A DNA stretch of 64,000 nucleotides from Candidatus Bathyarchaeia archaeon (GTDB lineage: Archaea > Thermoproteota > Bathyarchaeia > Bathyarchaeales > Bathyarchaeaceae): positions 421,362 through 485,361 of the forward strand of contig DATETJ010000002.1 in assembly GCA_035283685.1 (NCBI GenBank), read 5' to 3'. Below the pieces are notes generated by a model. It did no database searches. It worked only from the letters and a program-made list of their open reading frames with translations, and was not told where the DNA came from. Below, one piece after another: positions 7,855-63,372 of this stretch; position 1 is the stretch's first letter, and the number at the start of each line of letters is the position of its first letter. Both the position numbers and the translations under genes were made by a program.

Positions 7855-7860
7855 GTAATT

Positions 7861-9102: not shown

Positions 9103-9221
9103 ATGCTTCTTCCCCGCAAGCGATTGACAACAGTGTCTAAGCAAACCAAAATTTAAACTATTTATCTGGATACGTAAGAGGTATGAGGCAACATTAATGT
9201 TGCTGAAAAGGTCGTGAAGCA

Positions 9222-24568: not shown

Positions 24569-24728
24569 TTCCTTTTTTCTCCAAGGAAATTTGAGAGTAG
24601 CAACCTTCGCCAAGCATATTAATAGACTTTGTGGAGTAATGTAGGCGGATGTTACTTTTGTTTTGAAAGAAAACAACTAATATCAGAAAACTGGAATATC
24701 TATAGCAAAACCCTTGAAGGTGAGGACG

Positions 24729-46832: not shown

Positions 46833-46849
46833 ACTTGGAGGTGAATAGA

Positions 46850-48256
46850 GTGAGAGGAAAAAGCATTTTGTGGTTGGCTCTTGCTGCGTTGCTGTTGGCT
46901 ATGCCTGCAGTTAACGTGCGGGCGCAGACCACAACTGTATATATAGATCCTCCATTGACCACTGGCCTAATGCCTGGCGACATCTTTGCGGTGAACCTGA
47001 TGGTGATGGGTGCTGTTGATCTGAAGTCATGGCAGGTTGAGTTGTCCTTCTCGAAGTACATGGCCACGCTAGCTGTCACCGACGTCATTGAGGGCGACTT
47101 CATGATGATTGGTGGCGATACCTTCATGGCTAAGTACGTGGATGCGTTCCACGGCTTGCTGAAGGTTGGTGTCACTATCCTCGGACAAGTCGGCGGCGTC
47201 TACGGTGATGGATGGCTAGCTACAATAATCTTCACTGTGCTAGAAGCAGGCGAAACTCCATTAGACCTACATGACACTATACTGTTGGACTCCATGGGCG
47301 TTGAGATGGCGCACGATGCAGTTGACGCCTATTATCTTGGACTCACTGCGGATATGTACAACGTGCCTGGCAGCAACCAGACAAGAGAAGGTGGCTGGAA
47401 GGCAGGAGACACCCGCAAGTTCAAGATGATAGTCCAAAACACAGGCTATGCACCACTCTATGTGCGTGCAAAGCACTCAACTGTGCGCGGCTCAGACAAC
47501 AAGGTGTTCAACCTGTACAGCGGCCAACACATGTACACAACAGTGCCTAGACCAACAACGTACTACAACGTGAGTGGCTACACACCCGCAGGCTTCTCTG
47601 ATTGGACAACAGTCGGTACAAGTCCATTCCTAGCCCCATGGGGACCAGCGGCAGGTGCTGGCGCGGACGGTAGCTACGTTCAAGCGAGCGACTACAGCCA
47701 GTTGACAGGCATAATTGACTTCCAGGACATCAGCTTGAACCCAGGAGACGTCATCCTGAGTGTAACGCTTGAAGCGTTCACAAAGGCAGACAGCACTGCA
47801 ATTGATATGGACGTCTACACGTATCCAGACTTTGCTTGGCTAGGTTCCTTGTGGGGTTCTGGAAGCTACGGCTGGAAGACTCAGAGATGGATAACAGGTC
47901 CAATTTCCGACTCTATGCCGTCGCTCAAGACCGCCGCAGGATTCAATAGCCTGAAGCTAGTGATTCACTACTGGACAGAAACTGGCGCTACGATGGGCAA
48001 CGCTTTCATGGAAGCGATCAGATTGAGAGTGGCTTTCACTGGAATTGATCCGTTGACTCCAGGCTTCTACACTATCATGCCAGGCGAACAGAAAGTCCTG
48101 CCAGCAGCGTTATGGGATCTATGGGCATTCGACGCAAACACCTACACAACAACTTCAACCCTTGAGTATCGATACAACTTCCCAGACCCACGATTCCCAA
48201 TGGTTTGGCAAACTGGTCAGCATACCAAAACGTTCACTTGGTGGGTCCGACCGTAA
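46850..48256 (+). CDS. Secreted cohesin-domain protein (class-1 cohesin + uncharacterised C-terminal module)
   Basis: GGAGGTG precedes the GTG at 46850 (the track ORF starts at 46835), and a signal peptide follows. The cohesin is at nt 46937-47341 (VYIDPP...KSWQVELSF...GDGWLATIIF). There is no TM anchor and no dockerin. Confidence 0.75.
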   Translation: MRGKSILWLALAALLLAMPAVNVRAQTTTVYIDPPLTTGLMPGDIFAVNLMVMGAVDLKSWQVELSFSKYMATLAVTDVIEGDFMMIGGDTFMAKYVDAFHGLLKVGVTILGQVGGVYGDGWLATIIFTVLEAGETPLDLHDTILLDSMGVEMAHDAVDAYYLGLTADMYNVPGSNQTREGGWKAGDTRKFKMIVQNTGYAPLYVRAKHSTVRGSDNKVFNLYSGQHMYTTVPRPTTYYNVSGYTPAGFSDWTTVGTSPFLAPWGPAAGAGADGSYVQASDYSQLTGIIDFQDISLNPGDVILSVTLEAFTKADSTAIDMDVYTYPDFAWLGSLWGSGSYGWKTQRWITGPISDSMPSLKTAAGFNSLKLVIHYWTETGATMGNAFMEAIRLRVAFTGIDPLTPGFYTIMPGEQKVLPAALWDLWAFDANTYTTTSTLEYRYNFPDPRFPMVWQTGQHTKTFTWWVRP

Positions 48257-48354
48257 ACGGATTCATCACGTGACGTCCCAAACTCCCTTTTTTCTTTTCT
48301 TGTAAATTAACACAATGTCACAGGAGACCCCACCCTACGAGAAGACAGAAACTC

Positions 48355-50265
48355 GTGCTTCTGACGATGCTCGTTTCTTCGGTTTTGTTACTCGCAAATA
48401 TACATTCTGTGTCGCCCATTGTTTGGTCAAGCGAGAAACCGCTCCCAACTAACACGTCGTACTATGATGGATCTGCTTCGGTTACCCAGACATCGGATGG
48501 AAAAATTTGGGTAGTCTGGGACAAGGAGGTGCAGTCGCGCTGGTCTATTTTCTATACGACGTCGTCTGATTACGGCGCGACTTGGGCGCTTGAGCAAAAC
48601 CTCACCGCGGTTCCAAGTCAAGACTTTAACAAAGATCCGTCAATTGTTCAGCTGTCGAACGGAACAATAATAGTTGTGTGGGCAGCGCAGAAGAATCCGC
48701 CGCTTCTTCCCAATGATTTTGAAATGAGTGCATCGCCTAACGCGCTCACAATTCCTAGGGGAAGTTCAGGTTTTTCCAATATCACAGTCCATTCGCTGAA
48801 CGGCTTCAGTGACTTGGTGAGTTTGTCAACGAGGATTGGACCACCCACTCCACATATTACTACGGGTTTTAGCCCTCCTCAAGTGACGCCTCCGCCGAAC
48901 GGGAACGCTTATTCAGGTCTTACAATAAATGTTGGCGTGCAGACCCCTGTGGGCACGTACACTGTAACAGTGAGAGGCTACAACCAGGCGCTCGACGTAA
49001 CTCGAACCACGATTGTCACTGTGACTGTTCCTTCCACCTTAAGTTCACCTTCTTCGATGGTTAGCGACTTCTCGCCTGCGGCTGAGCCTACACAGTCTCC
49101 TTATGAACTTGTCTACAGAACCTCGTCAGATAATGGAACCACCTGGTCAGCTGAAAAGAAGCTTCCGCTTGACGATGCTTCTGGGGATAATTTGGCGCCT
49201 TCCATAATGCAGGCTGCTAATGGCTCTATTTGGCTTGTCTGGGTTTCTGGTCGGACGGGTAATTCCGAATTATATTATAAGACTTCGCCGGATGGGATTT
49301 CTTGGTCTAGTGATTTTCGGCTCACGTATAATGCGAGTGTGGATGGCAGCCCATCCATTGCGCAAATGCAAAATGGCAACATATGGGTTGTTTGGTCTAC
49401 GGACAGGTTTGGGTTAAACGAAGAGCTGATTTACAACGTTTACAATGGAACATCTTGGCTGGGTGAACAGCGGCTCACTAGCACCGTAGATTACATTGAC
49501 GTGTATCCCGCGATTCTTCAGGCATGGAATGGAACGATACGCGTATTCTGGACTATAATTGGTGTTCCAGGCGATGGCACAGGCGACATTTACTATGTGG
49601 AGTCAAATAACAATGGAACTTCGTGGTCAAGTCCGATTCCATTTACAACCGACACTCGGGAGGACCAGTGGGTTGCTGTGGCTGAGTCTGTGGACACGCG
49701 TATGTGGGTTGTGTGGACTTCGAATCGAACTGGTGGCTTTGACCTTTATTACAGAACTTCGCTTGTGCACAACTTGGCTGTCACTGTAGTTGATCCTTCG
49801 CCGCTCAGAGTCTACCAGAAAGAAAATGTGACGATAGATGTGACTGTGCGGAATTGGGGTGACTTTGGTGAATCCTTCACTTTGTCCTGTTACGCTAATA
49901 CTACCTTGGTATATTCTCGTCCAGTTACTTTAGCGTCTGGGGCTTGGACAACAGTGACTTTTGGATGGAATACGTCTGGTTTTGAGCGGGGCAACTACTA
50001 TGTGACCGCAGTGGCAAGCGTGGTCCTAGGTGAGATTTATGCTGGAGATAATTCTCTGACGCATTCAACTATTCGTGTGAAGCTTTTAGGTGACGTAGAT
50101 GACAGTGGGTTGGTCAACACGCGTGACATGTTTAATCTGGGAAAGGCTTTCGGATCTGTGCCTGGAAACCCTAATTGGAATGAAGAGGCAGACATGAACG
50201 GAGACAACGCAGTCAACACTGTTGATTTGTCGGAGTTAGTCGGCAACTTCGGCGCAACTGGCTAA
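48355..50265 (+). CDS. BNR/Asp-box repeat beta-propeller protein + Ig-like insert + CARDB + C-terminal dockerin
   Basis: The Asp-box motifs are SSDYGATW, SSDNGTTW, SPDGISW and SNNNGTSW. The CARDB region is HNLAVTVVDPSP...VTVRNWGD. The dockerin is at nt 50083-50262 (GDVDDSGLVNTRDMFNLGKAFG / ADMNGDNAVNTVDLSELVGNFG). Confidence 0.8.
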   Translation: MLLTMLVSSVLLLANIHSVSPIVWSSEKPLPTNTSYYDGSASVTQTSDGKIWVVWDKEVQSRWSIFYTTSSDYGATWALEQNLTAVPSQDFNKDPSIVQLSNGTIIVVWAAQKNPPLLPNDFEMSASPNALTIPRGSSGFSNITVHSLNGFSDLVSLSTRIGPPTPHITTGFSPPQVTPPPNGNAYSGLTINVGVQTPVGTYTVTVRGYNQALDVTRTTIVTVTVPSTLSSPSSMVSDFSPAAEPTQSPYELVYRTSSDNGTTWSAEKKLPLDDASGDNLAPSIMQAANGSIWLVWVSGRTGNSELYYKTSPDGISWSSDFRLTYNASVDGSPSIAQMQNGNIWVVWSTDRFGLNEELIYNVYNGTSWLGEQRLTSTVDYIDVYPAILQAWNGTIRVFWTIIGVPGDGTGDIYYVESNNNGTSWSSPIPFTTDTREDQWVAVAESVDTRMWVVWTSNRTGGFDLYYRTSLVHNLAVTVVDPSPLRVYQKENVTIDVTVRNWGDFGESFTLSCYANTTLVYSRPVTLASGAWTTVTFGWNTSGFERGNYYVTAVASVVLGEIYAGDNSLTHSTIRVKLLGDVDDSGLVNTRDMFNLGKAFGSVPGNPNWNEEADMNGDNAVNTVDLSELVGNFGATG

Positions 50266-50353
50266 CTGAGACCTGTCTCCTTCAATTATGGATAAGTTTA
50301 AATGTTTTATCTTCTCTGTTTTCCTACGAATCCTATTCACGCCTAAAGAGGAA

Positions 50354-51634
50354 ATGAGGATGCCGAAGCCTAAACATGTGTTGCTTTTGTTGAGTTTGTT
50401 TGTTTTGAGTCTTTCAGCTTTGAGTTTGGTCCCTTCGTCTGTGGAGCAGGTGAAGCCGCTTGTTTATGTTGATCCGACTCCTATTGATTTTGAGCCTGGC
50501 GAAAGTTTCAATATAAATATCACAATCAAGTCTGCTGTGAACGTGTTTGCTTGGGAGTTCAAGTTGTTGTGGAATGCGTCAGTTCTTAATTACACTGGAG
50601 CTGTTGAAGGCGACTTTCTTAAGGGTTTTCAAAACGCGTCCACTTATTGGGTTAACCCGGTGCTGACTCAAAACGTCAGTGACAAATATCGTGTTCTTCT
50701 TGGGGTTACTCGTTTAGGCGCTGATATTCCTGGGGTTAGCGGAAGTGGTAAGCTTGCTATGATAAGTTTTGATGTTTTGACCAAGGGCGAAACAACCTTA
50801 GATTTGGTGGAAACCAAATTGAGAGACAGCGTTCCAAATCCAATTGATCACGATTCGCGGGATGGTTTGTTCTCGAATACAGCTGGTTTTCCGCGACCTG
50901 ATTTTTCGTTCACTCCTGCTAAAGCGAATATTAATGAGACCATTACGTTTGATGCCAGCAATTCGACTGATGTTGATCAGGGCGTAGATCATTACATTGT
51001 TCTTTATTCTTGGAATTTCAGCGATGGCACTCCCGTCGTGGAGGAGGCTGGCGCCATTACTTATCATGCTTATTCTGAGGGTGGCACTTATGACGTGACT
51101 TTGACTGTTATGGACAATGATCGCTGGAACAGGTCGATTACTAAGGCGGTGAAGGTTCGGTTCACGTACGATGTCAAGGTCGCCGAGGTTAAAGCTGCGG
51201 TTGAGTCTGCTACAATTGGCGACAAAGTGGCTATTACGGTGAAGGTTAGCAATGAGGGTTCAGGCGATTTGACGAGTGTGAGTGTCACGGCTTATTATAG
51301 TGTAGGGTTGCAGTTGGGTACTGCTTTGGGTCCAGCGCAGACTACGTCGTTAGTTGTTGATCAGACTAAGACTTTGTCTTTCGAGTGGGACACTTCAGGT
51401 GTGGCTAAGGGCAGCTACCGAATTAACGCGGCGGTTGCTCCTGTTGCAGGTGAGCCTGAACAAGCTCAGGAGGATAATACGAGCCGGGGTGGCACGGTTA
51501 CGTTGGTTGAGGTTCAGGAGACTCCTTGGCTCTTGTACGGTGGCATTATCGCCGGAGTTGCCGTGGTGGCTGTTGTCGGTTTCCTGTTTATGAGGCGCCG
51601 AGGCGGCGGTGGCAAGCAAACTCCAATTCGCTAG
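50354..51634 (+). CDS. Membrane-anchored cohesin (class 2) - PKD - CARDB surface protein
   Basis: The start is taken at MRMPKPKHVLLLL (the track ORF starts at 50288). The cohesin is at nt 50459-50875 (NVFAWEFKLLW...GSGKLAMISF). The PKD motif is FDASNST...YSWNFSDGT and the CARDB motif is VTVKVSNEGSGD. A C-terminal TM helix plus RRRGGGG follows. Confidence 0.8.
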   Translation: MRMPKPKHVLLLLSLFVLSLSALSLVPSSVEQVKPLVYVDPTPIDFEPGESFNINITIKSAVNVFAWEFKLLWNASVLNYTGAVEGDFLKGFQNASTYWVNPVLTQNVSDKYRVLLGVTRLGADIPGVSGSGKLAMISFDVLTKGETTLDLVETKLRDSVPNPIDHDSRDGLFSNTAGFPRPDFSFTPAKANINETITFDASNSTDVDQGVDHYIVLYSWNFSDGTPVVEEAGAITYHAYSEGGTYDVTLTVMDNDRWNRSITKAVKVRFTYDVKVAEVKAAVESATIGDKVAITVKVSNEGSGDLTSVSVTAYYSVGLQLGTALGPAQTTSLVVDQTKTLSFEWDTSGVAKGSYRINAAVAPVAGEPEQAQEDNTSRGGTVTLVEVQETPWLLYGGIIAGVAVVAVVGFLFMRRRGGGGKQTPIR

Positions 51635-51848
51635 ACCCGGAAACTTCTAGCATCTCTTTTTTCTTGTGGTCTTTTTGGAAATCTGTTTCTTAGTAGAGGC
51701 AAGTTCTGGCGTTTGATGCGCCTTTTTCCATTATAGTGTGGTTACAATAATCGTCTAGTATTGTGTTTAGTAGATGTGTTCAGCAACTTTTAAATTGTGT
51801 CTTGCATTTAGTTTCACATGTTCAACGTTGGAGAGAGAAGGCGAGGAC

Positions 51849-54761
51849 ATGAAGAAACCTAATCCGCGTCAGGTTTACGGCATAATTGTTTTACTCACGG
51901 TTTTGATCACTCCATTTCTGCCATTAGTACCAACGGCGAAATCACAAGCTTCAACAATCGTGTATGTCGATCCCCCTTCCACTACGGGCTTATTGCCCGG
52001 AGACATTTTCGCTGTTAACATAATGATCTCGGGCGCTGTCGATCTGAAATCATGGCAGTTCAAAATGTCTTTTCAAGGAGTCATCGACGGAGTGCTAATG
52101 GTCACCGATGTCATTGAAGGCGACTTCCTGATGATAGGAGGCACAACCTACTTCACCAAGAACATTAACAATGACGCTGGCTGGGTTCAAGCCGCCGCCA
52201 GCATTCTGGGTCAGGTGGGCGGCGTGTACGGAGACGGCTGGTTGGCAACAGTGATCTTTAAAGTTGTTGGAGGCGGCGAAAGCCCGCTCGACCTGCATGA
52301 CACGATACTTCTTGATTCAAACAGTGCTGCGATTCCGCATGATGTAACTGACGGGAGTTATGTTGGTGCTGCACCTTATGCCTCTTTCAGTTACCGTCCG
52401 TATGAGGTGATTGATGGCTATGAGCCTGCAGCTAATCAAACAGTCACGCTTAATGCTACTGACAGCTACGATCCAGAAGGAACGATTATAGCAGACTATG
52501 CCTGGAACATCACCACAGCTGATTTGGCGGAAGTTATCGCAGCTTTCAGTACAACTGATAAAATCTCAACGCACAGCTTCACAAAAGAAGGGCTATACCT
52601 TGTGAAACTCAATGTTACTGACAGCGATTCGCCGAATCCCCATTGGGATGCGACTAACAAGACTATTAACATTGTAAGAAGAGACATAAACGTCACTAAG
52701 GTCGAAGTCGTGCCCATTGGAGAGATCATACCTGGGACTTTGATAAGCATCAATGTTACTGTCCAAAACATTGGAACTGGACAAGAAGACTTCGGTGTAA
52801 CCACATTCTATAATGGCGTTCCAATAAGCACCACGCAGATAATAGGACTGAGCCCGAAAACTCCCGGGACACCATATTTGCAGTACACTAAAAGCACAGT
52901 GCATACTTGGGATACAACGGGCATCCCAGAAGCTGTATACGCCATAAAAGGCGTGGCAATCACAGACCCCGGCGAGAACAACATAACAAACAACGAGCTT
53001 GTTGGCGGAAGCGTAACGATTGCATCCGCGAGCAGGCTCATATACAATATTCCAGTTTTTGGCAGAACGTTCACAGTCGGGATACGCACGGACTCGCTGG
53101 CGTCTGCTGATGCGAATGAAATGTTTGTTCACGGCGAGAAAAAATTGACCTTTAACGTCACAGGACAACAAGGAATCTTACGCTTCTCAAACGTAACATT
53201 ACCGCATGATCTACTGAACGCCTCAAGTCCAACAGCGTGGATTGTTAAACTAAACGGCTCCAACACCAACTACATGGCAATATTCAACAGCACTCATTAC
53301 TTCATATACCTCAACTACACATTCGCAAGCGCTTACACAGTGAGTATAATAGGAGAAAGCGTTGCCGACCCACCACAGCCTATCCTAATAATCACACCAA
53401 CACGAGGGGTCGCCGGTCAACCTGTGACACTTGATGCCTCCTCGAGCACAGATCCTGACGGTCACGGTTTCACCGAGTTCTTTTACTGGGCTTACAGGGT
53501 TTCTGCGCAGGGTGACAAAATCAATTTCTGGAACAAAACCACGACCGACGATTCAGTTACCGTGGTGTTTAACCAGTCTGCCCTCAGTCTGAACTCGCTA
53601 CGAGTGACCTTGACCATTACGGACAGCTGGGGAATGGAGAACACGACTCAAGAGCAAATTCTCGACGTGTTGTGGCCGTTTGACATAGCCTTAGTAGACA
53701 TTGACGTCTCCAAGGACTCCATCAACATAGGTGAAGCAATTTTCATCAATGTGACAGTGACAAGTGTCCTCGATACTCATGGCGACAAAGTGCTGTTCAA
53801 AGTCACAATATATGGCAATGATACCACATTGACGACGAAGCTGGTCAAACCTAACATACAACCTCCGGAAATCCAAGTGCCCGAAGTTGGCATTAATGCA
53901 CGAGCGGATTTCGAATGGAACACAACAAGCTTGGCAATCGGCACTTACACGCTGAAAGCAACTGTAACAGTCGTCGAGTATTCCACTATACGCACGAATC
54001 TTCCTGCGGAAATCAACATCACAGATAACATGCTGACTTACGGCGAGGTAACAATAAAGAAATGGGGAAGTCTAGTAACCATGGTACTGTCGCCTTCAAC
54101 AATTAACATAGGACAAGACACCAAGATCAGCGGGGCGGTAACTCGTTCAGCAACTTCGCTTACAGATGTCCCCGTAACCGTTCAGTACAGAGGCTCTGGA
54201 CAAACCGGCGCATGGACTGACGCTGCAACAGTGAACACAAACGTTCAAGGACAATATCAATACACATGGAAGCCCCTCTTGGCTGGCAACTATGACATAA
54301 GAGCTAGTTGGGCTGGAGACAGCATCACGTCGGCTAACGTGAGCACAACCAGAGCTTTAGTAGTTCGTCAAGCAATAAGTGAGATAACCATCGAGGTCAC
54401 AGCCAGATCAGCAACTGCAGGCTCCACAATAACCATTAGTGGCACAATCACCCCTTATGCGCCTGCTGTATCAGTGACAATTAATGTGCGGAAAGACGGC
54501 GGAACTTGGACAACGCTGGTTACAGTGACAACTGACGCTCAAGGCAACTATCAGTATGGATGGAAGCCAGGCGAAGCTGGAAGCTACGAACTGCAAGCAA
54601 CATGGGAAGGTAACGTTAACGCCGGGGCGAGCGAAAGCGACATCAAAACCGTGTCAGTGTCCGCTGATGGATTACAAAGCATCTACATATACATCGCTGT
54701 GGGAGCAATCATACTTATCGCTGTGGTTGCGGCAGTGTTCTTCCTTAGAAAGAGAAAATAA
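51849..54761 (+). CDS. Large membrane-anchored cohesin (class 1) protein with PKD/CARDB/Ig-like array
   Basis: The start is taken at MKKPNPRQ (the track ORF starts at 51774). The cohesin is at nt 51960-52367 and is close to the module at 30816-31223. It has PKD-like motifs (LDASSSTDPDG), CARDB-like segments and two tandem Ig-like repeats (NVQGQYQYTWKP / DAQGNYQYGWKP). A C-terminal TM helix plus FLRKRK follows. Confidence 0.8.
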   Translation: MKKPNPRQVYGIIVLLTVLITPFLPLVPTAKSQASTIVYVDPPSTTGLLPGDIFAVNIMISGAVDLKSWQFKMSFQGVIDGVLMVTDVIEGDFLMIGGTTYFTKNINNDAGWVQAAASILGQVGGVYGDGWLATVIFKVVGGGESPLDLHDTILLDSNSAAIPHDVTDGSYVGAAPYASFSYRPYEVIDGYEPAANQTVTLNATDSYDPEGTIIADYAWNITTADLAEVIAAFSTTDKISTHSFTKEGLYLVKLNVTDSDSPNPHWDATNKTINIVRRDINVTKVEVVPIGEIIPGTLISINVTVQNIGTGQEDFGVTTFYNGVPISTTQIIGLSPKTPGTPYLQYTKSTVHTWDTTGIPEAVYAIKGVAITDPGENNITNNELVGGSVTIASASRLIYNIPVFGRTFTVGIRTDSLASADANEMFVHGEKKLTFNVTGQQGILRFSNVTLPHDLLNASSPTAWIVKLNGSNTNYMAIFNSTHYFIYLNYTFASAYTVSIIGESVADPPQPILIITPTRGVAGQPVTLDASSSTDPDGHGFTEFFYWAYRVSAQGDKINFWNKTTTDDSVTVVFNQSALSLNSLRVTLTITDSWGMENTTQEQILDVLWPFDIALVDIDVSKDSINIGEAIFINVTVTSVLDTHGDKVLFKVTIYGNDTTLTTKLVKPNIQPPEIQVPEVGINARADFEWNTTSLAIGTYTLKATVTVVEYSTIRTNLPAEINITDNMLTYGEVTIKKWGSLVTMVLSPSTINIGQDTKISGAVTRSATSLTDVPVTVQYRGSGQTGAWTDAATVNTNVQGQYQYTWKPLLAGNYDIRASWAGDSITSANVSTTRALVVRQAISEITIEVTARSATAGSTITISGTITPYAPAVSVTINVRKDGGTWTTLVTVTTDAQGNYQYGWKPGEAGSYELQATWEGNVNAGASESDIKTVSVSADGLQSIYIYIAVGAIILIAVVAAVFFLRKRK

Positions 54762-54894
54762 GGCGGGCATTGAACTCGTAGACGCTTTCTCCCATCTTTC
54801 TGTATGCTCTGGCTTATAGACGACAATTACACAAACGATTTATATTTGACTGCAGTTTTATTACGTGTAGTTGGCAGTAGAGGGAGAGAAAGAG

Positions 54895-56076
54895 ATGAAA
54901 CGTGTACTAGCAATAGCACTATTTATGATTATAGGTTTCAGCGCAGTTTTCAGCATGGTAAAAATAACTTCAGCAACAACAATCATAACTTTGAGTATTG
55001 ACCCCCTGAAAGTTCCTGGAAAAGTCGGAAGAAACATCACATTCGACATCGCCATCAGCGGAGTCAACTCATCCGTCCTTGACTTGTGGGCGTGGGAACT
55101 CAAACTCAACTGGACAGACATTGACTTCAACTACGTCAGCGCAGTGCAAGGTTCGTTCCTTGCACAAAGCGGCACCACCTTCTGGGTCTCACCAATTAGG
55201 AGCGGCACAGGAGGCAACGAAACTTTGACTTTGGCTTGCACGCGTACGGGAGCCGGATCAGGCTCCTTGGGTAGCGGTGTTCTAGCCACCATAACCCTAT
55301 ATGTGGTCGGTGGAACATCAGGATCCAAATTTGACCTTTACTCCATCAAGCTGCGGAACAGCCTCCTTAATCCAATTGAGCCGCCAACATACGATGTAAG
55401 CGTGCTCGATCAAGTGGGCGAGTTTGCACGACCAAGAAGCTATGATCTCGAACCGGTGTTTGGCGAGGTTGACATTTATGATCTAGCGGTCGTAGGAGTG
55501 AACTACGGAACAAACGTTATCCGCGTCACAAAGATTGCCACACAATGGGCAGTAGCAGGTGGAGCTGGATGGCTCAATCCAGAGTTTGTGGGATCTTCTG
55601 ATGACACTCGGGCATCCGAAACGACTCTCAACGATGCACATAGATGGACTAACTTCGGCTTCAACACAACATCTTGGACGGGAGTGAGTAAAGTCGAAGT
55701 GGGGCTGGAGAGAATGGTTGACAGCAGCTTCAGATTGATAACCGTTGCAATGTCCAACGACAATGGCGGAACTTGGAGCGCCACGACGTTTACTCACAAC
55801 GCCTCTGACCAATTTGACACTCTCGTCTGGGTCGATGTAACCACAGCATACGCTTGGACCAAAGCAATGGTGAATAACATCGCGGTCAGACTGACCTATG
55901 CTTCGGCTACAGGAACAACATTCCGTCTTGACTACTTGGCTATTAGGGTCACTCCGTCTCCAGTGCTTTTGCCGCCAGAGGTATTTGATCCAGAAGCGGA
56001 TGTAGACAACGACCTTAACGTTGACATTGATGACTTGGTCAGAGTGGCGACCAATTATGGGGAGTACGAACTATAA
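54895..56076 (+). CDS. Cohesin + split-dockerin protein (putative adaptor)
   Basis: The start is taken at MKRVLAIALF (the track ORF starts at 54871). The cohesin is at nt 54982-55425 (LWAWELKLNW...GSGVLATITL). The dockerin half-sites are at nt 55441-55512 (GEVDIYDLAVVGVNYG) and 55978-56073 (DVDNDLNVDIDDLVRVATNYG). They are separated by about 155 aa. Confidence 0.75.
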   Translation: MKRVLAIALFMIIGFSAVFSMVKITSATTIITLSIDPLKVPGKVGRNITFDIAISGVNSSVLDLWAWELKLNWTDIDFNYVSAVQGSFLAQSGTTFWVSPIRSGTGGNETLTLACTRTGAGSGSLGSGVLATITLYVVGGTSGSKFDLYSIKLRNSLLNPIEPPTYDVSVLDQVGEFARPRSYDLEPVFGEVDIYDLAVVGVNYGTNVIRVTKIATQWAVAGGAGWLNPEFVGSSDDTRASETTLNDAHRWTNFGFNTTSWTGVSKVEVGLERMVDSSFRLITVAMSNDNGGTWSATTFTHNASDQFDTLVWVDVTTAYAWTKAMVNNIAVRLTYASATGTTFRLDYLAIRVTPSPVLLPPEVFDPEADVDNDLNVDIDDLVRVATNYGEYEL

Positions 56077-56092
56077 TTTGGAGGGAGCGTGA

Positions 56093-57685
56093 ATGAACAA
56101 AGCAATCAAGATTATGTTGCTTCTGCTTGCACTTGCACTAGCTTCAGTCCTTACAGCTTCAGACAAAGTTGCGCCTTTCCAAATCGAAAGCGCTAGCGCA
56201 CCTCCAGTTACCGGTACGTATGCTTCCCGCCCCAGCAATTACACATTTAGTAGTGGGGTATTCGCGAGATTCCCAGACAGAGCGTACGATGGCAGCAACG
56301 CAACAACAAACGTTGCCAATTGGGCCCACACCAACGGAGCAGGTTACGGCACATCTAACGGCTACTTTGAGCTAAACGTCTACGGTCCGAGGGCAGCACC
56401 GCCTAGGGGTTCAAGAATCACGCGGGTTGATCTGCATGTTGTTTTCTTTGTGGTATCGCAGACGTCAGATACCGGAGCCACAATGTACATCAACTATCGG
56501 GTAAGTCCGAGCACTACTAACACTACTCTTCAATCGTGGACTCGAGCACAGCTAAACGTTAGTGCTCCCTGGCATAACAGAACTTATACCAATCAAGCAG
56601 ATCCCAACGGCGGCGGATGGGCTTGGGAAGACTTATCCAACCTGAAGTTCCGGTTCAACAGACAAGACCCGAGTACGCCAAGCACCAGCGGCGTCTTACG
56701 AATCCATGAGGTTTGGGCAACTGTTTACTACGAGTTTACGCAAACAGTCGCCATCTATCCAAAGATTCAATCGCCTATTCCTTCCCAAGTCAAAATAAAC
56801 GTCACAGGAATAGAGGAGCTGTACGGCTTTGAGTTTAAGATGACCTACAACGCAACAGCGATAACTGTGACAAGCGTCCAATTAGGACCATATCTGAACA
56901 CCACGGCTGGTGCAGGAAACACTTATGGCGCTCTACTCAAACTGAATGACACAGCAGGCTTCGTTTGGGCTACACAATCAATTCGAGGAAACATTAGAGG
57001 CGGAAACATAGCTTACGGAACTTGGCAAACGCTAGCCACAATAAACATCGCTACCCAATCTGGTGGACCAACCAACCTCAACTTCGAAGTCAAACTCGCA
57101 GGACACAACTACCTCATAAAGAAGGCATACCCCGGTTCCTTCACACTAATCCAGCCTGGACATGACGTTGCAGTAACAAACATCGTTCCAACACCAACAA
57201 CGGTAACGCGAGGAGACAACGTAACAGTTGACGTCACAGTCAGAAACGACGGCGACTACATCGAAACATTCTACCTATCAACCTACGCTAACACATCAGC
57301 CGCAACCTCGCTAATAGAAACCAAAACCGTGAGCGGCTTAGGCTTAGGCGCAACCCAAGTAGTGTCCTTCACATGGAACACCCGCGACTTCCCGAGAGGC
57401 AACTACACAGTCAGCGCAGTAGCAGCTACAATAGGCGTACTAGACACAGACTCAACTGACAACACACTATACAACCTAGCCTCAGTAGTAGAAGTCAACC
57501 CACTCTTCGGCGACATAAACGAAGACGGCTGGGTAAGCAGCGCCGACCTCGCAGCCATCAACTTCTCATGGGGAACCCAACCCGGAGACCTACTCTGGAA
57601 CTTGAACGCTGACCTAAGCAGCGACAGCTTCATAGACGCTGAAGACCTCAGACTACTCGGCGAAGCCTGGGAACCACCAGCATAA
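56093..57685 (+). CDS. Unknown N-terminal module + cohesin + CARDB + C-terminal dockerin protein
   Basis: It has a GGAGGGAG RBS and a signal peptide. The cohesin is at nt 56744-57151 (LYGFEFKMTY...WQTLATINI). The CARDB region is HDVAVTNIVP...VTVRNDGD. The dockerin is at nt 57500-57673 (GDINEDGWVSSADLAAINFSWG / ADLSSDSFIDAEDLRLLGEAW). Confidence 0.8.
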   Translation: MNKAIKIMLLLLALALASVLTASDKVAPFQIESASAPPVTGTYASRPSNYTFSSGVFARFPDRAYDGSNATTNVANWAHTNGAGYGTSNGYFELNVYGPRAAPPRGSRITRVDLHVVFFVVSQTSDTGATMYINYRVSPSTTNTTLQSWTRAQLNVSAPWHNRTYTNQADPNGGGWAWEDLSNLKFRFNRQDPSTPSTSGVLRIHEVWATVYYEFTQTVAIYPKIQSPIPSQVKINVTGIEELYGFEFKMTYNATAITVTSVQLGPYLNTTAGAGNTYGALLKLNDTAGFVWATQSIRGNIRGGNIAYGTWQTLATINIATQSGGPTNLNFEVKLAGHNYLIKKAYPGSFTLIQPGHDVAVTNIVPTPTTVTRGDNVTVDVTVRNDGDYIETFYLSTYANTSAATSLIETKTVSGLGLGATQVVSFTWNTRDFPRGNYTVSAVAATIGVLDTDSTDNTLYNLASVVEVNPLFGDINEDGWVSSADLAAINFSWGTQPGDLLWNLNADLSSDSFIDAEDLRLLGEAWEPPA

Positions 57686-57710
57686 AAAACACCAGCTCTC
57701 ACACATCATC

Positions 57711-57720
57711 TTCTTTTTTC
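57711..57720 (+). terminator. Oligo-T tract; candidate archaeal terminator of the cohesin/dockerin operon
   Basis: The sequence ttcttttttc lies about 25 nt after the stop codon at 57683-57685. Confidence 0.35.
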
Positions 57721-57972
57721 GTTACACGCAGAACAGCAGAGAGCCTTAAACAACCTGAATCTAGCCAGCGCCTCCAAAGCAACACACGCTGGCATCTGCA
57801 CACCCAAACCACACTCCTGCAACACAAGACTTGACGACGACACTACAACGAATACCTAGCCATCAACACGCACACAGCAAAGAAGACCCTGCAACAAAGG
57901 AAGCAGTTGTGGCAAAAGCACGAGCGCCCTTCAACAAGCTCCCACACAGCCACACAGGCGCACTCAAAAAGG

Positions 57973-58017
57973 TCGTTATTATTACGGTTTCTAAGCGGAA
58001 GTTAATAACACCTGAAA
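57973..58017. repeat. Copy 1 of an intergenic repeat of about 45 bp (22-nt exact core ttctaagcggaagttaataaca at 57989-58010)
   Basis: The core is identical to 58290-58311, and the flanks are similar (tcgttattatt.. / ..ctgaaa). The copy contains the GTTATTA/TAATAAC inverted repeat. Confidence 0.8.
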
Positions 58018-58215
58018 CAGAAACCAGCCCCCCACGCCATCCCTTGGCGAAACCATGCCCAAACAGTGACAAAACTTGACACAAGACACCAGGCAAACAG
58101 CGCCCAAAACACCATACAAAGACCCAAACAGACCCCAAAACACAACGCTCAAACCTTGTTGATGACACTAAGAACGATTGGGCATCAACACCCACACAGC
58201 CAGACGCCTACAACA

Positions 58216-58260
58216 TAGAAGTAGTAGTCAACGTACACGCGGCGCAGACTACTACTTCTA
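58216..58260. other. Perfect 14-bp inverted repeat (stem-loop) in non-coding region
   Basis: The arm tagaagtagtagtc (58216-58229) pairs with gactactacttcta (58247-58260). The loop is 17 nt. Confidence 0.8.
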
Positions 58261-58273
58261 AACCTGAAGCACC

Positions 58274-58318
58274 TCGGTATTATTGCTTGTTCTAAGCGGA
58301 AGTTAATAACATCTGAAA
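58274..58318. repeat. Copy 2 of an intergenic repeat of about 45 bp (22-nt exact core at 58290-58311)
   Basis: It has the same 22-nt core and similar flanks as 57973-58017. The cores are 301 bp apart. Confidence 0.8.
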
Positions 58319-58496
58319 AGAAACCCACCTCCAACATCCAAGATGTTGTTGTGGCAAACCCTTCAACGTCAACAACAACTTCAAAACAGCCACAGCCCTT
58401 AACACGTAACATTGAGAGGCGTTAATGCCACCGGGAACAGTCGTATGACGACATCCACGCAGCTTTCAGCCTCTAAACGCATCCGCAACACTGTTA

Positions 58497-58545
58497 GAAG
58501 AAGGTATAAGAGGCTAACCGCCTTCTTCTTTTGAAATTTCTTTTT
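58497..58545 (+). terminator. Hairpin followed by a T-rich tract (intrinsic-terminator-like, + strand)
   Basis: The arm gaagaagg (58497-58504) pairs with ccttcttc (58521-58528). It is followed by ttttgaaatttcttttt. Confidence 0.4.
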
Positions 58546-58592
58546 CCGCAGAGCCACATGCACCCTAACATAGAGGCTCAGCAACAGTCAGT

Positions 58593-58626
58593 TGTTAGTG
58601 TTTCTTAGGCAACGTCAACACTAACA
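58593..58626. other. 10-bp perfect stem-loop just downstream of the minus-strand gene that ends at 58680
   Basis: The arm tgttagtgtt (58593-58602) pairs with aacactaaca (58617-58626). The loop is 14 nt. Confidence 0.7.
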
Positions 58627-58679
58627 TCCACGCAAATGCAACCGCACAAACCGACAATTCATAAAGCTGGAAACTACGC

Positions 58680-59246
58680 TTACTTTCTCTTAACCTTCAT
58701 CGGCTTCCTAGACTTCGCAACCAACCCAAAAATCATGACAACCACACCCAACAAAGCCGCCAACGTTCCCACAACTGAATACGGGGAACCAACACGATTC
58801 TTAGCCACATTCTCCTTCGCATACACATTACTGCCAGGCAAAACATCAACTGGAACCGCGCCCTCATTCACCAAATCCACCTGATACGTACCATTCCCAC
58901 CCACATCCACCCTCTGACCAAAAACCGCTCCAACCTCACTAAAAACGGGAACCAAAGTCTGACTACCCTCCGCATCCCTCTGCACACTCGACACCGACAC
59001 CCTAACAACCCCAGAAAAACTCAAATTCAACTTAAACCACGAACTCCTCGACATAAACCTACCCCAAAACCCCCTGTCCCCAGAACTCCCCGACGCATTC
59101 AACCGCGAAGGCCAAATAGGCCTCACAACAGAACCCCAAACCTCAACCACATTCTCCTCAAAATAAACCTCACGAACCGAATACAACGTCAACGCAACAC
59201 CCACAATAACCAGAACCAAACCTGCAACAACAAATAACCGCCTCAA
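58680..59246 (-). CDS. Hypothetical membrane protein (N- and C-terminal TM helices, extracytoplasmic middle)
   Basis: 188 aa with MRRLFVVAGLVLVIVGVAL at the N-terminus and LLGVVVMIFGLV plus a basic tail at the C-terminus. Codon usage is GT-rich. Confidence 0.45.
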   Translation of the reverse strand: MRRLFVVAGLVLVIVGVALTLYSVREVYFEENVVEVWGSVVRPIWPSRLNASGSSGDRGFWGRFMSRSSWFKLNLSFSGVVRVSVSSVQRDAEGSQTLVPVFSEVGAVFGQRVDVGGNGTYQVDLVNEGAVPVDVLPGSNVYAKENVAKNRVGSPYSVVGTLAALLGVVVMIFGLVAKSRKPMKVKRK

Positions 59247-59261
59247 CCCAACCGCCTCATC

Positions 59262-59759
59262 CTAACTCTGCTTCACAACCGCCGAACCCCTAAGCTCAAC
59301 CACTTGCTTATCAACATACTCCCAGAACAAACTTTCAAACTCGCTCATCGCCTCTTGCAGCCTCACATCCCTCAAAAAAAGCCCTCCCCCACCAAAAACC
59401 GAACCAACATAACCCAAAACCATCCCCAACGAAAACCCACTAGTCTTCCTCCCAGGCACAAACTCCACCTTAAAAAACTCCGGACTACCAAAAACCCTCA
59501 CATTAACCCGGAAATGAACATTCACCGCCTCTATTTTGAAACCCGAGCCAAAACGCTCCAACTTAGTCTCAAACTTGTTGTCAACGAAAAAACGCTCTAC
59601 ACCCTCACTGAACAACCGGAGATCCACATTCTGATCAGACCACTCATCTTTCACAGTTTCAATCCCTACATAACCAGAAAGCAGAAACGATGTTTTAAAA
59701 CCTTTTTGACGCCGACCAACGTCACTTAGACTTCCTCCGCTTCCGCCAAAAAACAACAA
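59262..59759 (-). CDS. Hypothetical protein
   Basis: 165-aa ORF whose 5' end overlaps the upstream gene by 38 nt, so the start is uncertain. No family recognised. Confidence 0.4.
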   Translation of the reverse strand: MLFFGGSGGSLSDVGRRQKGFKTSFLLSGYVGIETVKDEWSDQNVDLRLFSEGVERFFVDNKFETKLERFGSGFKIEAVNVHFRVNVRVFGSPEFFKVEFVPGRKTSGFSLGMVLGYVGSVFGGGGLFLRDVRLQEAMSEFESLFWEYVDKQVVELRGSAVVKQS

Positions 59760-61716
59760 TCACAACAAAAGCCACAGCCGCTACAACCACAATCACCAGA
59801 CCAGTAAGCCACACATCCAAAAACCTAGGCGACACAACCACATCTCGCTGACTCTGACCACTCCAATAACCATCCTTAGACGCATTCACCACTAGCTCAA
59901 CAACCTGCCGCTCAGCGATCGAGGGCACCGTGAACTTCACCTGAAAACTCCCCTCCAAATCAGTTACACCCCTCTGCAGAGAGAAAACCCCAGACGCATT
60001 AGAAAAAAACGTAATATTAACTCCAGCAACCGCACTCAAACCATCAGTAACATAAACGTCAATAATCAACTCGCCACCCACACTCACACTCGGAGCATTA
60101 AGAACCATCGCGACAACCAAAGTTGGCAACGCCCTCAAAACCAGAGAGGCATTACTGCCACTCCCAAACCCTAAATCATCAATCACACTCAAAAACACCG
60201 TGAAATTGCCAGGCAACACATACGCATGAATCACGGTGGGCTCAAAAACCCAGCCACTGTCAGAACCGTCGCCAAAATCAAAAAAATAACGCTCAATTCG
60301 CCCATCATCACCTGACTTGGACGCATTAAAAGTAACCGCTTCGTTAACAGCCAACAAACTCTTATCCGCTTCCAACAATGCAAAGGGTCGCTCATTAGCC
60401 ACTGCACTCAAGAGAAACGGCGTGAAATCCAAATCCACGCCATTGCCGTCCACAGGATTCCCCTTTCCACCAGGGTTTAGAGCTGGGTGATATGGACCGC
60501 TGGCGTCACCCCAGAAATTGAACTCCGCATTCACAACAGCCTCGTCAGTAACGTTCATCCCGTAAACATTGCCATAAATGTCGTTCATGCCAGCAACATT
60601 ATACGTGTCACCAGTAACATTGACCCCGTAACCATTGTACGAAATCGAATTCCCTGCAATCTTGGTTTTAACCCCCTCCTCAACAGGTCTCGACCGTCCT
60701 CCAGAAATAAAAATCCCAAAACCCACATTCTCAGAAATGACGTTCTCAGACACCAGCACATCAAACTCAGAACTCACATGGTGGAAATTTGCGTAAACAT
60801 AAAGCCCAGCTTGGTTGAAAACCACTCGATTACCTAAAACAGATGCATTGTAAATGGAGCCAAACCACGGTCCACCGCTGTACAAGTAGATCCCATCAAA
60901 ATTGTAAGCCACAGTATTGTTCGAGATCACGACATTCAGAATTCGACTTATGTCATAATCAAAGAAGCCCGCCCAAATGAAAAAGTACAAACCCCGCCCA
61001 TTGTGAACAACATTGTTGCCAATGATCGCCACATCTGAAATAGTTGCACCTCGCGTGGCCCACGCCTCAAGACGAATCCCATTCTCATTATGCTGAATTA
61101 CACTATCGACGATGCTTAGACCCGAGACGATGTCACCGCTACTTGACACACCGTTTCCATTGATTTCGATCAGCGAATCTCTTATGTTAACATGATTTCT
61201 GCCTTCGACATGGACGCCGCTGATCAGACAGTGGGCGATTTTGGAGCTTTCGATTTCAGCTGTTCCCAGACTTTGCACAGTAATCCCGTACCGGGCATAT
61301 TCCACGACTGCGTTTCTCATTTGAAATCGCTCGTTTTGTGTGCCGTTGAATTTTATTGTGCCCCAGTCTCCTGGCGTCGGTTGAGGCTTGCCTGACGTGA
61401 AAACTATAGAGCTGGTCTCGGTTCCGAGGGCTTGCAGACTTCCGCTCACTATCAGAGAGTAGTTGCCTTGAAACTTGATTTCAACCCCGGGTTCGATCGT
61501 GAGTGTGGCACCGCCCTCTACGAGGATGTCGCTTGTGATTATGTAAGGGCTGCCAGAAACCGTCCACGTAGTGTTTTGGGATATTTGAGCTCCAATCAAA
61601 CCTGAGCTCAGGCCAGCTGCATTCATGAATAGGGGTACGCCGGCAAGAGAGCTGAAGAGCAACGCAGCCTGCAAGATTAACAAAACTGGTTTCATGACTT
61701 TGCTTGGAATCGACAT
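59722..61716 (-). CDS. Surface protein: parallel beta-helix (PbH1/NosD-like) + PKD + Ig-like + C-terminal TM anchor
   Basis: 664 aa with a signal peptide and beta-helix repeats (VISNNTVAYN, VLGNRVVFNQ, ISENVISEN). The PKD motif is FNASKSGDDGRIERYFFDFGDGS. A C-terminal TM helix plus WRKRRKSK follows. Confidence 0.75.
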   Translation of the reverse strand: MSIPSKVMKPVLLILQAALLFSSLAGVPLFMNAAGLSSGLIGAQISQNTTWTVSGSPYIITSDILVEGGATLTIEPGVEIKFQGNYSLIVSGSLQALGTETSSIVFTSGKPQPTPGDWGTIKFNGTQNERFQMRNAVVEYARYGITVQSLGTAEIESSKIAHCLISGVHVEGRNHVNIRDSLIEINGNGVSSSGDIVSGLSIVDSVIQHNENGIRLEAWATRGATISDVAIIGNNVVHNGRGLYFFIWAGFFDYDISRILNVVISNNTVAYNFDGIYLYSGGPWFGSIYNASVLGNRVVFNQAGLYVYANFHHVSSEFDVLVSENVISENVGFGIFISGGRSRPVEEGVKTKIAGNSISYNGYGVNVTGDTYNVAGMNDIYGNVYGMNVTDEAVVNAEFNFWGDASGPYHPALNPGGKGNPVDGNGVDLDFTPFLLSAVANERPFALLEADKSLLAVNEAVTFNASKSGDDGRIERYFFDFGDGSDSGWVFEPTVIHAYVLPGNFTVFLSVIDDLGFGSGSNASLVLRALPTLVVAMVLNAPSVSVGGELIIDVYVTDGLSAVAGVNITFFSNASGVFSLQRGVTDLEGSFQVKFTVPSIAERQVVELVVNASKDGYWSGQSQRDVVVSPRFLDVWLTGLVIVVVAAVAFVVIVVFWRKRRKSK

Positions 61717-61872
61717 TGGTCAGCCTTCAGCCTACCATAATTCACTGTGGATTCCGCGGGTATTATTCTTAGCGACGCAAGAGATCGTCATCGCTAGGCT
61801 GGCTTCCGATGGCTGTTTATAGATTTGTTTAAATGGTTTCTCTCGAAAGCAATATTTTTGGAGGTTGCAACA

Positions 61873-63372
61873 GTGAAGAGGTTGCCGATTCTTGTTGTTA
61901 ATCTGCTGATTCTGGTTTGTGTTCTTCCCTCGGTGTTTGTGAAAGCTGCGGCTGATGGCACGTTTAGTGGTCCAATGGACGTGGCTCAGGTTGCGCCAAA
62001 TCCGGTTGTCGAGACCAACTCGACTAGTTTGATAGTTTTGGTTCTTGTGAATTCTACAATTTATGGTGGTGTTGAGGCGTCGTTGATGCGGTACAGGGCG
62101 GATTTGGTTGGCTTCGGTTTTGAGGATGTTAAGGTTTTGAACTGGTCAGAGCCGAATCCTGCTCTTATCCGGGGGACTTTGCAGGATTTCTATTTGAATA
62201 GTAGCTTGGCTGGGGTGCTTTTGGTTGGCGATTTGCCCGCTGCTGAGTATGAGATGTTCACTGAGTGGGATTATGAAAGGTTTCCAATGGATTTGTATTA
62301 CATGGACCTAGACGGCAACTGGACCGACAGCGACAGAGATGGCATATTAGATACGCATTCCGGGAGGAAAGTGGCGCCTGAGATTTGGGTTGGCAGAATA
62401 AAGGCTTCGAACTTAGGGGAGGACGAGGTTTCGTTGGTGAACAACTATTTTGCTAGGAATCATCAGTACCGGTCAGGTTTGCTTTCGGTTCCAAAGAGAG
62501 CGTTGATGTACATTGACGATGACTGGGCTGATTACGCGACCATGGATAGTTACTCTCTGGGTCTGTTGTACGATAACGTCACTGAGGTTTTTGATAAGCG
62601 AACTACCAGTGTGGCTGATTTCAAGGAGCGACTGAATCAAGGTTACGAGTGGATTCATTTGCGCGCTCACGGCGATTGGAAGCAGACTGGTTTTTTGGTG
62701 CCCGGCGAAAGTGGTGGTCTGATTTATTCAACCGAATATAAGGCTCTTAATCCTCAGGCATTGTTTTATCAGCTGTTTGTGTGTTACGCCGCTAGGTTCA
62801 CTGAGCCGAACTATCTCGCGGGTGAGATTGTGTTCAACACGGATTCTGCATTGATGGCTATTAGCTCTACGAAGCTTGGCGGCATGTTGATGTATTGGAC
62901 TTTTTATGAAGCTTTAGCGAACGGCAAAACTGTTGGCGACGCTTTCAAAGAATGGTTTGTCAAGTGGGGAGAAGGGAAACTTTCGATTTCTAGTAATTGG
63001 ATTGGCAGAAAATGGTTCTATGGATTAACTGTTATTGGTGATCCGACGCTTAGGCTGCGTTGGCTTGGGGAGAAGGAAATTGCAGATTTGCAGAGAAGGG
63101 AGGAGGAGGTTATTGACGATTTGCCGCTTGTTCAAGGGCTGTTTGAGCAGATTGAGAATTCGGAGTCAAGTTACGATTCGTTGAACGCGCAGTATAATAA
63201 TTTGAAGGATTCTCATTTGGCTTTGCGTTTGACTTATGACGGAGTAATCGTTCAGTTGGGTGATATTCGTGATTTGGTGTATTTCTTTCTGTTAGTCGTT
63301 GGCGGGCTTGCGGTTTCCAATGTGTATTTGGTTAGGACGAGGCCTAAACCTAAGAGGTTAAATTTGGATTAG
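61873..63372 (+). CDS. Gingipain-like (peptidase C25 / clan CD) cysteine peptidase homologue with C-terminal coiled-coil and TM anchor
   Basis: GGAGGT precedes the GTG at 61873 (the track ORF starts at 61825). The C25-like landmarks are LLVGDLPAAEY, DLYYMDLDGNW, EIWVGRI, WIHLRAHGDW (His-Gly), LFVCYAARF (Cys) and VIGDPTLRL. Confidence 0.6.
   Translation: MKRLPILVVNLLILVCVLPSVFVKAAADGTFSGPMDVAQVAPNPVVETNSTSLIVLVLVNSTIYGGVEASLMRYRADLVGFGFEDVKVLNWSEPNPALIRGTLQDFYLNSSLAGVLLVGDLPAAEYEMFTEWDYERFPMDLYYMDLDGNWTDSDRDGILDTHSGRKVAPEIWVGRIKASNLGEDEVSLVNNYFARNHQYRSGLLSVPKRALMYIDDDWADYATMDSYSLGLLYDNVTEVFDKRTTSVADFKERLNQGYEWIHLRAHGDWKQTGFLVPGESGGLIYSTEYKALNPQALFYQLFVCYAARFTEPNYLAGEIVFNTDSALMAISSTKLGGMLMYWTFYEALANGKTVGDAFKEWFVKWGEGKLSISSNWIGRKWFYGLTVIGDPTLRLRWLGEKEIADLQRREEEVIDDLPLVQGLFEQIENSESSYDSLNAQYNNLKDSHLALRLTYDGVIVQLGDIRDLVYFFLLVVGGLAVSNVYLVRTRPKPKRLNLD

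Follow-up and report, generated by a model that had tools for sequence, protein, structure and literature searches.

A secreted cohesin protein whose dockerin repeats are separated by a nested jelly-roll module

Dockerins have been treated as compact modules of ~60 to 70 amino acids (aa), and domain searches seek two adjacent repeats. The canonical type I dockerins, for instance those of C. thermocellum Xyn10B (1OHZ_B) and B. cellulosolvens Cel48 (2Y3N_B), consist of two F-hand repeats of ~22 aa with a linker of 8 to 12 aa between them, and in each repeat a Ca2+ loop precedes a helix. Monovalent adaptor scaffoldins combine one cohesin with one dockerin, as do R. flavefaciens ScaC and a cohesin-plus-dockerin protein of Archaeoglobus fulgidus; to our knowledge, their dockerins are contiguous and hold no nested module resembling a carbohydrate-binding module (CBM). 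Here we describe a protein encoded by the open reading frame (ORF) at positions 54895 to 56076 of a 64-kb stretch of DNA (the window), which shares with these adaptors the single cohesin, the single dockerin, and the small secreted format. Its two repeats of ~22 residues, each a 12-residue Ca2+ loop and then a helix, become collinear with those of type I dockerins once the intervening segment is removed, and they lie toward the C terminus of a secreted protein with cohesin proteins encoded next door. Where type I dockerins have a short linker, however, this protein has a folded domain of 148 aa (module X), so the repeats are not adjacent. The parts, namely cohesin, dockerin, and CBM-like jelly-roll, are familiar; the topology is not.

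The closest precedents, and the only described dockerins with an interrupted F-hand duplication, are the type III dockerins of R. flavefaciens (CttA XDoc, group 4a) and that of ScaA, in which the interruption is made by inserts (PMC4266597, PMC5934362); a short insert in the Ca2+ loop is tolerated there, with altered coordination and a preserved fold (PMC5934362). Those inserts are flaps of 12 to 13 aa that buttress a preceding X module, whereas the protein described here has an autonomous domain between the repeats and no such preceding module. CBMs inserted inside another domain are known but uncommon, being found in the catalytic domains of a few xylanases and in a GH5 (PMC12484212); the host in those cases is an enzyme, and here it is a dockerin of 60 aa. 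The setting of the new protein is non-cellulosomal and probably archaeal, and it resembles the non-cellulosomal systems discussed for ANME (anaerobic methanotrophic) archaea (PMC9012536). A full-text literature search returned neither a “split dockerin” nor any account of a dockerin with a domain nested inside it.

The gene runs on the + strand from an ATG at 54895 to the stop at 56076 and encodes 393 aa. The ORF list and public gene calls start at an upstream TTG (54871), giving 401 aa; the ATG was preferred because the aligned M(K/R) begins most full-length homologues. The domain order is signal peptide, cohesin, dockerin repeat 1, module X, and dockerin repeat 2, all coordinates being on the + strand. 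The signal-peptide-like N terminus (aa 1 to 27, 54895 to 54975, MKRVLAIALFMIIGFSAVFSMVKITSA) was recognized by sequence reading and contains a helix (aa 2 to 19) in AlphaFold2 (AF2) model 1; it is followed by the cohesin module (aa 28 to 178, 54976 to 55428). Repeat 1 (aa 184 to 206, 55444 to 55512, DLEPVFGEVDIYDLAVVGVNYGT) is degenerate and was placed by comparative alignment. Module X (aa 208 to 355, 55516 to 55959), a CBM-type β-jelly-roll delimited by the gap of unsplit relatives, AF2, and Foldseek, leads through a return linker (aa 356 to 368, 55960 to 55998, PVLLPPEVFDPEA) into the near-canonical repeat 2 (aa 369 to 390, 55999 to 56064, DVDNDLNVDIDDLVRVATNYGE), which was assigned from its Ca2+ loop ligands and a profile match.

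The first-pass annotation of this DNA had proposed a cohesin protein with a dockerin split by an inserted module into two mutually duplicated halves about 155 aa apart. Its coordinates for the ORF and for the half-sites, YDLEPVFGEVDIYDLAVVGVNYGT (aa 183 to 206, 55441 to 55512) and EVFDPEADVDNDLNVDIDDLVRVATNYGEYEL (aa 362 to 393, 55978 to 56073), are correct, and the duplication holds: a gapless alignment of the halves (VDIYDLAVVGVNYG / VDIDDLVRVATNYG) contains 9 identities among 14 aligned residues, no other part of the protein matches half 2 as well as half 1, and both halves are conserved in every homologue. The local BLOSUM62 score of 41 was reached by 12 of 20,000 shuffles (~6e-4). The spacing was also fairly estimated, since the offset between equivalent positions is 184 aa, G205 and D369 are separated by 162 residues (aa 206 to 368), and the module excised by alignment to unsplit relatives measures 148 aa here and 142 to 156 aa across 33 split members. 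The within-protein repeat is real but modest, so the case for a split dockerin rests on comparative data; canonical split relatives, unsplit relatives, a spliced-profile match, and the cohesin fold all bear the proposal out.

More than 30 metagenomic homologues share the split architecture, which the first-pass annotation had suggested looking for in other genomes. Twenty full-length homologues keep both halves together with X (32 to 73% identity to the target, ~373 to 565 aa), all of them metagenomic “hypothetical proteins.” Profile searches revealed a deeper branch (P0026 to P0029 and P0031 to P0040) at ~30 to 36% identity, with the same order of signal peptide, cohesin, half, X, and half, in which both halves have canonical DxNxDGxxDxxD loops. 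An example is P0028 (EDVNADGVVDIFDLASVAL ... TDINGDGKVRVLDLTLVSMQYG), where two stretches match Pfam Dockerin_1, aa 176 to 201 aligning with profile positions 2 to 24. Dockerin_1 scores above the cutoff of 22.9 bits were obtained for P0026 (30.0), P0027 (25.0), P0028 (30.5), P0077 (25.3), and P0081 (28.3), and the precomputed Pfam field reads “-” for 22 of 22 close homologues. Profile A3, which spans half 1, X, and half 2, was used to scan 1.84 billion cluster representatives (50% identity) and gave 2418 matches at E ≤ 1e-3, 351 at 1e-10, and 42 at 1e-30. The X portion alone was matched in most of the matches listed; the complete unit was aligned in one stretch in ~23 representatives of 222 to 1029 aa, almost always at the C terminus; P0071, in which a subtilase is fused to a cohesin, and P0068, a CARDB-cohesin fusion, are among them. 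When a hidden Markov model of the half 1-X-half 2 unit was run against all 346 six-frame ORFs of the window, the target was the sole match, and GTDB species-representative genomes, scanned both by alignment patterns and with the single protein, yielded no relative.

The same family also contains members without X, which have an ordinary contiguous dockerin: P0045 and P0046 (241 aa) and P0055 (331 aa). The contiguous dockerin of P0045 reads EDINMDGFVDAMDLASVAINYGKGPGDEIKPPEADVNGDGYVNIVDLSMVAIKYG. In the 36-sequence alignment these three proteins align over both halves, with a clean gap that coincides exactly with X, and KGPGDEIKPPEA, the short linker between the repeats of P0045 and P0046, is aligned with the PPE..PEA part of the target return linker. 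The unsplit P0046 and the split P0036 occupy the same syntenic slot, in which an 896-aa PKD protein, a BNR-dockerin protein, and a 288-aa cohesin protein precede the homologue; the two loci share 68% identity in the 288-aa cohesin neighbour. In a neighbour-joining tree of the cohesin and the two halves (X columns removed, 100 bootstrap replicates), P0045 and P0046 cluster with the split P0036 and P0064 (bootstrap 89), P0055 lies inside the split group P0074/77/73/23/70 (bootstrap 99), and monophyly of the unsplit forms was recovered in 0 of 100 bootstraps. As the unsplit forms are nested in two split clades, X has been cleanly removed or added more than once. From these sequences, repeated loss appears more parsimonious than repeated gain at the identical site, and contiguous and split dockerins appear to interconvert, each removal or addition leaving or using a working dockerin.

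Homology to dockerins extends over both repeats. The loop of repeat 2 carries acidic residues D369, D371, D373, D377, and D380 at positions 1, 3, 5, 9, and 12. In the homologue-guided alignment, the loop of repeat 1 has D184 at position 1, E186 at 3, G190 at 6, D193 at 9, and D196 at 12; D184, D193, and D196 are shared by all 36 sequences, and the E186 site varies among E, D, Q, and K across the family. Eleven positions are invariant in 20 sequences, spread over both halves (D184, G190, D193, Y195, D196, A368, D369, D380, L381, A385, and G389). Repeat 1 aligns with the canonical EDINxDGxxDIFDL of split relatives and with repeat 1 of the unsplit P0045, P0046, and P0055. An intermediate clade (P0023, P0025, and P0063; YDTQPNGLIDVYDL) has no insertion in loop 1 and an N at position 5, and other family members show assorted partial decays of repeat 1. 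On these alignments, repeat 1 seems to be more labile than repeat 2 in the family as a whole. At E ≤ 0.01, the family-wide spliced profile A6, from which X was deleted in silico, matched 22 PDB chains, of which nearly all are dockerins. The best was 2y3n_B (E 6.2e-10), in which a single stretch covers both repeats of the solved dockerin (profile 7 to 59 to chain 8 to 63), and 5lxv_B, 2b59_B, and 3kcp_A were matched as well. At the level of the family profile, the homology to solved dockerins is thus collinear over both repeats.

Module X is predicted with high confidence in the AF2 model based on the 36-sequence alignment (predicted local distance difference test [pLDDT] of 88 to 98), and the model adopts a CBM-type β-jelly-roll fold. 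Its top PDB match in Foldseek is the CBM36 structure 7ay3 (E 4.4e-6, TMt 0.67), followed by members of CBM61, CBM11, CBM32, CBM35, CBM22, CBM6, and CBM4; there were 147 matches at E ≤ 1e-3, mostly CBMs, with 8 to 17% identity to the structural matches. X belongs to the same fold class as these jelly-rolls, whereas no Pfam family matches it in the target and it has no defined CBM family membership by sequence. It contains an Asp-box (SxDxGxTW) that reads SNDNGGTW (aa 287 to 294, 55753 to 55776, by sequence reading), whose S287 and G291 do not vary across the family. P0005 gave sub-threshold Pfam matches to Reelin_subrepeat-B, BNR/Asp-box, and F5_F8_type_C_2, the Reelin and BNR ones lying on the equivalent Asp-box motif. 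X is a widespread module, often found in tandem arrays with up to nine matched stretches. In P0005 (565 aa), two tandem copies stand between the dockerin halves (alignment A1 columns ~355 to 500), so the number of nested modules is not fixed. In P0024 (612 aa), X and a second segment of ~170 aa are nested in the cohesin, which they split, and the dockerin is contiguous (high-scoring pairs to P0036 at aa 99 to 139, 161 to 305, 479 to 579, and 589 to 610); X therefore behaves as a general “insertable” module. A separate insert of ~200 aa occurs just before the last X strand (YVDWLPVRVTY) in P0041, P0043, and P0044 (345 to 381 aa). It begins in a Hint/intein-like manner, for example, with GCFAPDTEV, and had no Pfam match; it may be an intein or Hint domain within X.

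The N-terminal domain proved to be a cohesin in fold, as the first-pass annotation had stated. The only Pfam match of the target is a weak one to Cohesin (PF00963; E 0.022, 15.4 bits, below the gathering cutoff of 24.1), and its homologue P0028 scores 27.1 bits, above the cutoff. In AF2 model 1, aa 29 to 178 form a β-sandwich with pLDDT of ~74 to 92, and this predicted fold is the nine-stranded sandwich of cohesins. The top 50 Foldseek matches in the PDB are dominated by cohesins (TMt 0.6 to 0.73), among them 1aoh, 1ohz_A, 6kgf, 5lxv, and the archaeal 2xdh of Archaeoglobus fulgidus, so that the likeness to adaptor scaffoldins includes the cohesin fold.

For the packing of the two helices into one dockerin, the first-pass annotation had looked to AlphaFold. 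An AF2 model of aa 179 to 393, built from the 36-sequence alignment with the canonical and unsplit relatives, has a mean pLDDT of 87 and a predicted template modelling score (pTM) of 0.73. The halves reach pLDDT of ~60 to 85, and the helices of both are predicted with moderate confidence, helix 1 at aa 194 to 202 (block pLDDT 76 and 71) and helix 3 at aa 378 to 386 (block pLDDT 75 and 85), each flanked by isolated β-bridge residues; their packing against each other in cis we infer. An EF-hand-type motif is stable only when paired with another, and in dockerins helices 1 and 3 are packed antiparallel (PMC12484212). The connectors are of conserved length, with ~6 to 8 aa from helix 1 to X and 8 to 13 aa from X to loop 2. 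The nesting in P0024 and the tandem duplication in P0005 are the behaviour of a domain with adjacent termini, and adjacent termini of X, as implied by its place within the P0024 cohesin, favour closure in cis. Several observations weigh against an intact dockerin, however. Neither half reached a pLDDT of 50 when AF2 was first run on the whole protein with 20 sequences. Loop 2 is without the usual Gly at position 6, and loop 1 has lost position 5 (V188/F189) and gained one residue in the target clade; by these features, and by falling below every Pfam threshold, the protein differs from type I dockerins. Neither the intact target nor a version with X spliced out matched Pfam Dockerin_1 (PF00404) at E ≤ 1. 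The spliced profile of the target clade (A5) matched solved dockerins weakly and mainly via repeat 2 (2y3n_B, E 2e-4, via repeat 2; 8ajy_B, E 0.46, over both repeats), so the dockerin membership of the target rests on homology and not on a direct model match. The first-pass annotation had gone further: in a gapless register, which puts L at position 1 and F at position 5, it held that the first half lost most Ca ligands. Alignment guided by the homologues reveals the one-residue insertion and shows this to be overstated: the loss of position 5 stands, and position 1 (D184) is kept along with positions 3, 6, 9, and 12. Loop 1 may bind Ca2+.

The degenerate loop 1 with its insertion, the missing Dockerin_1 match, and the low confidence of the first model would all fit a relic, that is, halves of dockerin descent that in the target clade no longer form a dockerin, with repeat 1 serving as a linker or clasp helix while the cohesin and X do the work. 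Drift would then be expected, whereas repeat 1 is conserved as strongly as repeat 2: D184, G190, D193, Y195, D196, and V200 are invariant in 16 target-clade sequences, and the conserved residues include surface positions 10 and 11 (I-Y), which contact the cohesin in type I dockerins. Judged by this pattern, purifying selection on repeat 1 in the target clade appears to be as strong as that on repeat 2. The confidence of both halves also rises together with the deeper alignment, and we regard a relic as unlikely. Since the partner that an EF-hand motif requires may also come from another chain, and no cis contact was directly observed, repeat 1 might instead pair with repeat 2 of another molecule, a domain swap that would make the protein a dimerization or polymerization device; the two X modules of P0005, which lengthen the path between the halves, would suit such an arrangement. 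Short linkers of conserved length, the constant size of X (142 to 156 aa), its nesting in a cohesin with the adjacent termini that this implies, the pTM of the monomer model, and the ordinary monomeric dockerin sequence of the unsplit relatives all argue for cis closure, and pairing in trans is in our view quite improbable. That the first half resembles a dockerin repeat by chance and belongs to a different domain, either the cohesin C terminus or the start of X, was considered in view of the shortness of the internal repeat and its modest shuffle statistic. This explanation is refuted by P0028, whose canonical repeat 1 passes Pfam Dockerin_1, by the unsplit relatives, which align across the first half, and by the spliced profile, which matches solved dockerins over both repeats; the different-domain assignment that the first-pass annotation had named as fatal to its proposal is thereby excluded, and the odds left for chance are negligible.

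The architecture and its conservation, the dockerin-repeat homology of both halves, the unsplit relatives (one in the same slot), and the cohesin and CBM-like folds lead us to consider it likely that the protein is a secreted monovalent cohesin-dockerin adaptor of a cell-surface complex, with a complete CBM-type jelly-roll of ~148 aa inserted in the inter-repeat linker of its dockerin. Its role as an adaptor and the cohesin that receives its dockerin are among the parts that we infer, and X might, as the first-pass annotation suggested, regulate or present the dockerin. As proposed here, X would fold independently with its N and C termini close together, and for this reason repeats 1 (aa 184 to 206) and 2 (aa 369 to 390) would rejoin in cis into the usual two-helix EF-hand-pair dockerin. 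The split dockerin would plug into the cohesin of a neighbouring cluster protein, and the N-terminal cohesin would offer the next docking site. X would be held rigidly at the junction and is a probable glycan binder. With its insertion and decayed loop 1, the dockerin would be asymmetric and, as such, would be likely to bind in a single orientation. Because both termini of X are tied to the dockerin halves, a ligand on X (glycan or Ca2+) could also change the geometry of the F-hand pair and thereby turn cohesin binding on or off or lock it in one orientation; we think such gating doubtful, but if true, it would represent a natural ligand-gated cohesin-dockerin connector and a surface complex that assembles only on its substrate.

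The family indicates that the inter-repeat linker of a dockerin can host a whole folded domain. The split arrangement has been stable over deep divergence (~30% identity), has been reused behind different N-terminal parts (subtilase and CARDB), and has reverted to the contiguous form at least twice. Split dockerins are invisible to Pfam-style annotation, so cohesin-dockerin networks in uncultured, probably archaeal, lineages are likely to be under-counted. The linker would provide a naturally validated insertion site for designer-cellulosome or affinity-tag dockerins with a payload or sensor domain, and the asymmetry of the dockerin makes it a natural subject for distinguishing single from dual binding modes.

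The gene lies in a conserved cluster (window 44787 to 63372) that is also found in L001, L003, and L004. Upstream of the cluster are oligopeptide-type ABC permease genes. The cluster itself opens with an SBP_bac_5 solute-binding protein and a 473-aa protein, continues with a BNR/CARDB/dockerin protein, a cohesin/PKD/CARDB protein, a membrane-anchored PKD/Big_3_5 protein, and the target, and proceeds to an N-domain/cohesin/CARDB/dockerin protein, NosD-like β-helix/PKD proteins, and a C25 peptidase. Four of these products, all encoded on the + strand, are candidate partners. ORF 48355 to 50265, syntenic in L001, L003, and L004, encodes a BNR propeller, CARDB, and a canonical C-terminal dockerin (Pfam BNR_2, CARDB, and Dockerin_1, the last at 28.2 bits and above the cutoff). 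ORF 50288 to 51634 encodes cohesin, PKD, and CARDB domains (Pfam Cohesin 25.9 bits, above the cutoff; PKD; CARDB). ORF 51774 to 54761 encodes a large surface protein with PKD, CARDB, and Big_3_5 domains (Pfam), a cohesin-like N terminus, and, by sequence reading, the C-terminal hydrophobic anchor IYIYIAVGAIILIAVVAAVFFLRKRK; its L003 ortholog has a weak Cohesin match. ORF 56093 to 57685 encodes an N-terminal domain followed by cohesin, CARDB, and a canonical contiguous dockerin (Pfam CARDB; Cohesin 23.0 and Dockerin_1 21.9 bits, both just below cutoff). A linker of 10 aa joins its two dockerin repeats, so the same genome also uses ordinary dockerins. An X-like domain was sought in this ORF by BLASTP and by hhalign with the target/X profile, and only the dockerin repeats matched. 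The cluster has the appearance of a substrate-capture complex at the cell surface, with a link to the uptake of peptides or oligosaccharides. The most economical reading would be a membrane-anchored, scaffoldin-less cohesin-dockerin network in which the target serves as a one-cohesin, one-dockerin adaptor showing a glycan-binding-like module at the joint.

Some further features of the neighbourhood and of the window were recorded. The N-terminal domain of ORF 56093 to 57685 (~190 aa; aa 30 to 215, window 56093 to 56700) had no Pfam match, and a segment resembling it by eye is found at aa ~310 to 470 of P0024 and in the tail of P0067. In the latter (693 aa), ~130 aa past the second repeat resemble aa 30 to 120 of that ORF, and this tail represents either a fusion of two adjacent genes or a gene-call read-through. 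The 473-aa product of ORF 46835 to 48256 belongs to no Pfam family at E ≤ 0.01 and has a syntenic 472-aa counterpart in L001. No tRNA gene, rRNA, or Rfam family at the gathering score was detected in the 64-kb window. Elsewhere, the window encodes two adjacent MoeA-type molybdopterin molybdotransferase paralogues (6583 to 9234) and two adjacent, divergently oriented aldehyde:ferredoxin oxidoreductase-like (AOR-type) genes (22445 to 26564), and both pairs are a hint that the source organism uses tungsten or molybdenum enzymes. A Nop2p-type methylase and matches to archaeal models below threshold are also present and, with the AOR-type genes, suggest, though no more than that, an archaeal source; the GC content of the window is 48%.

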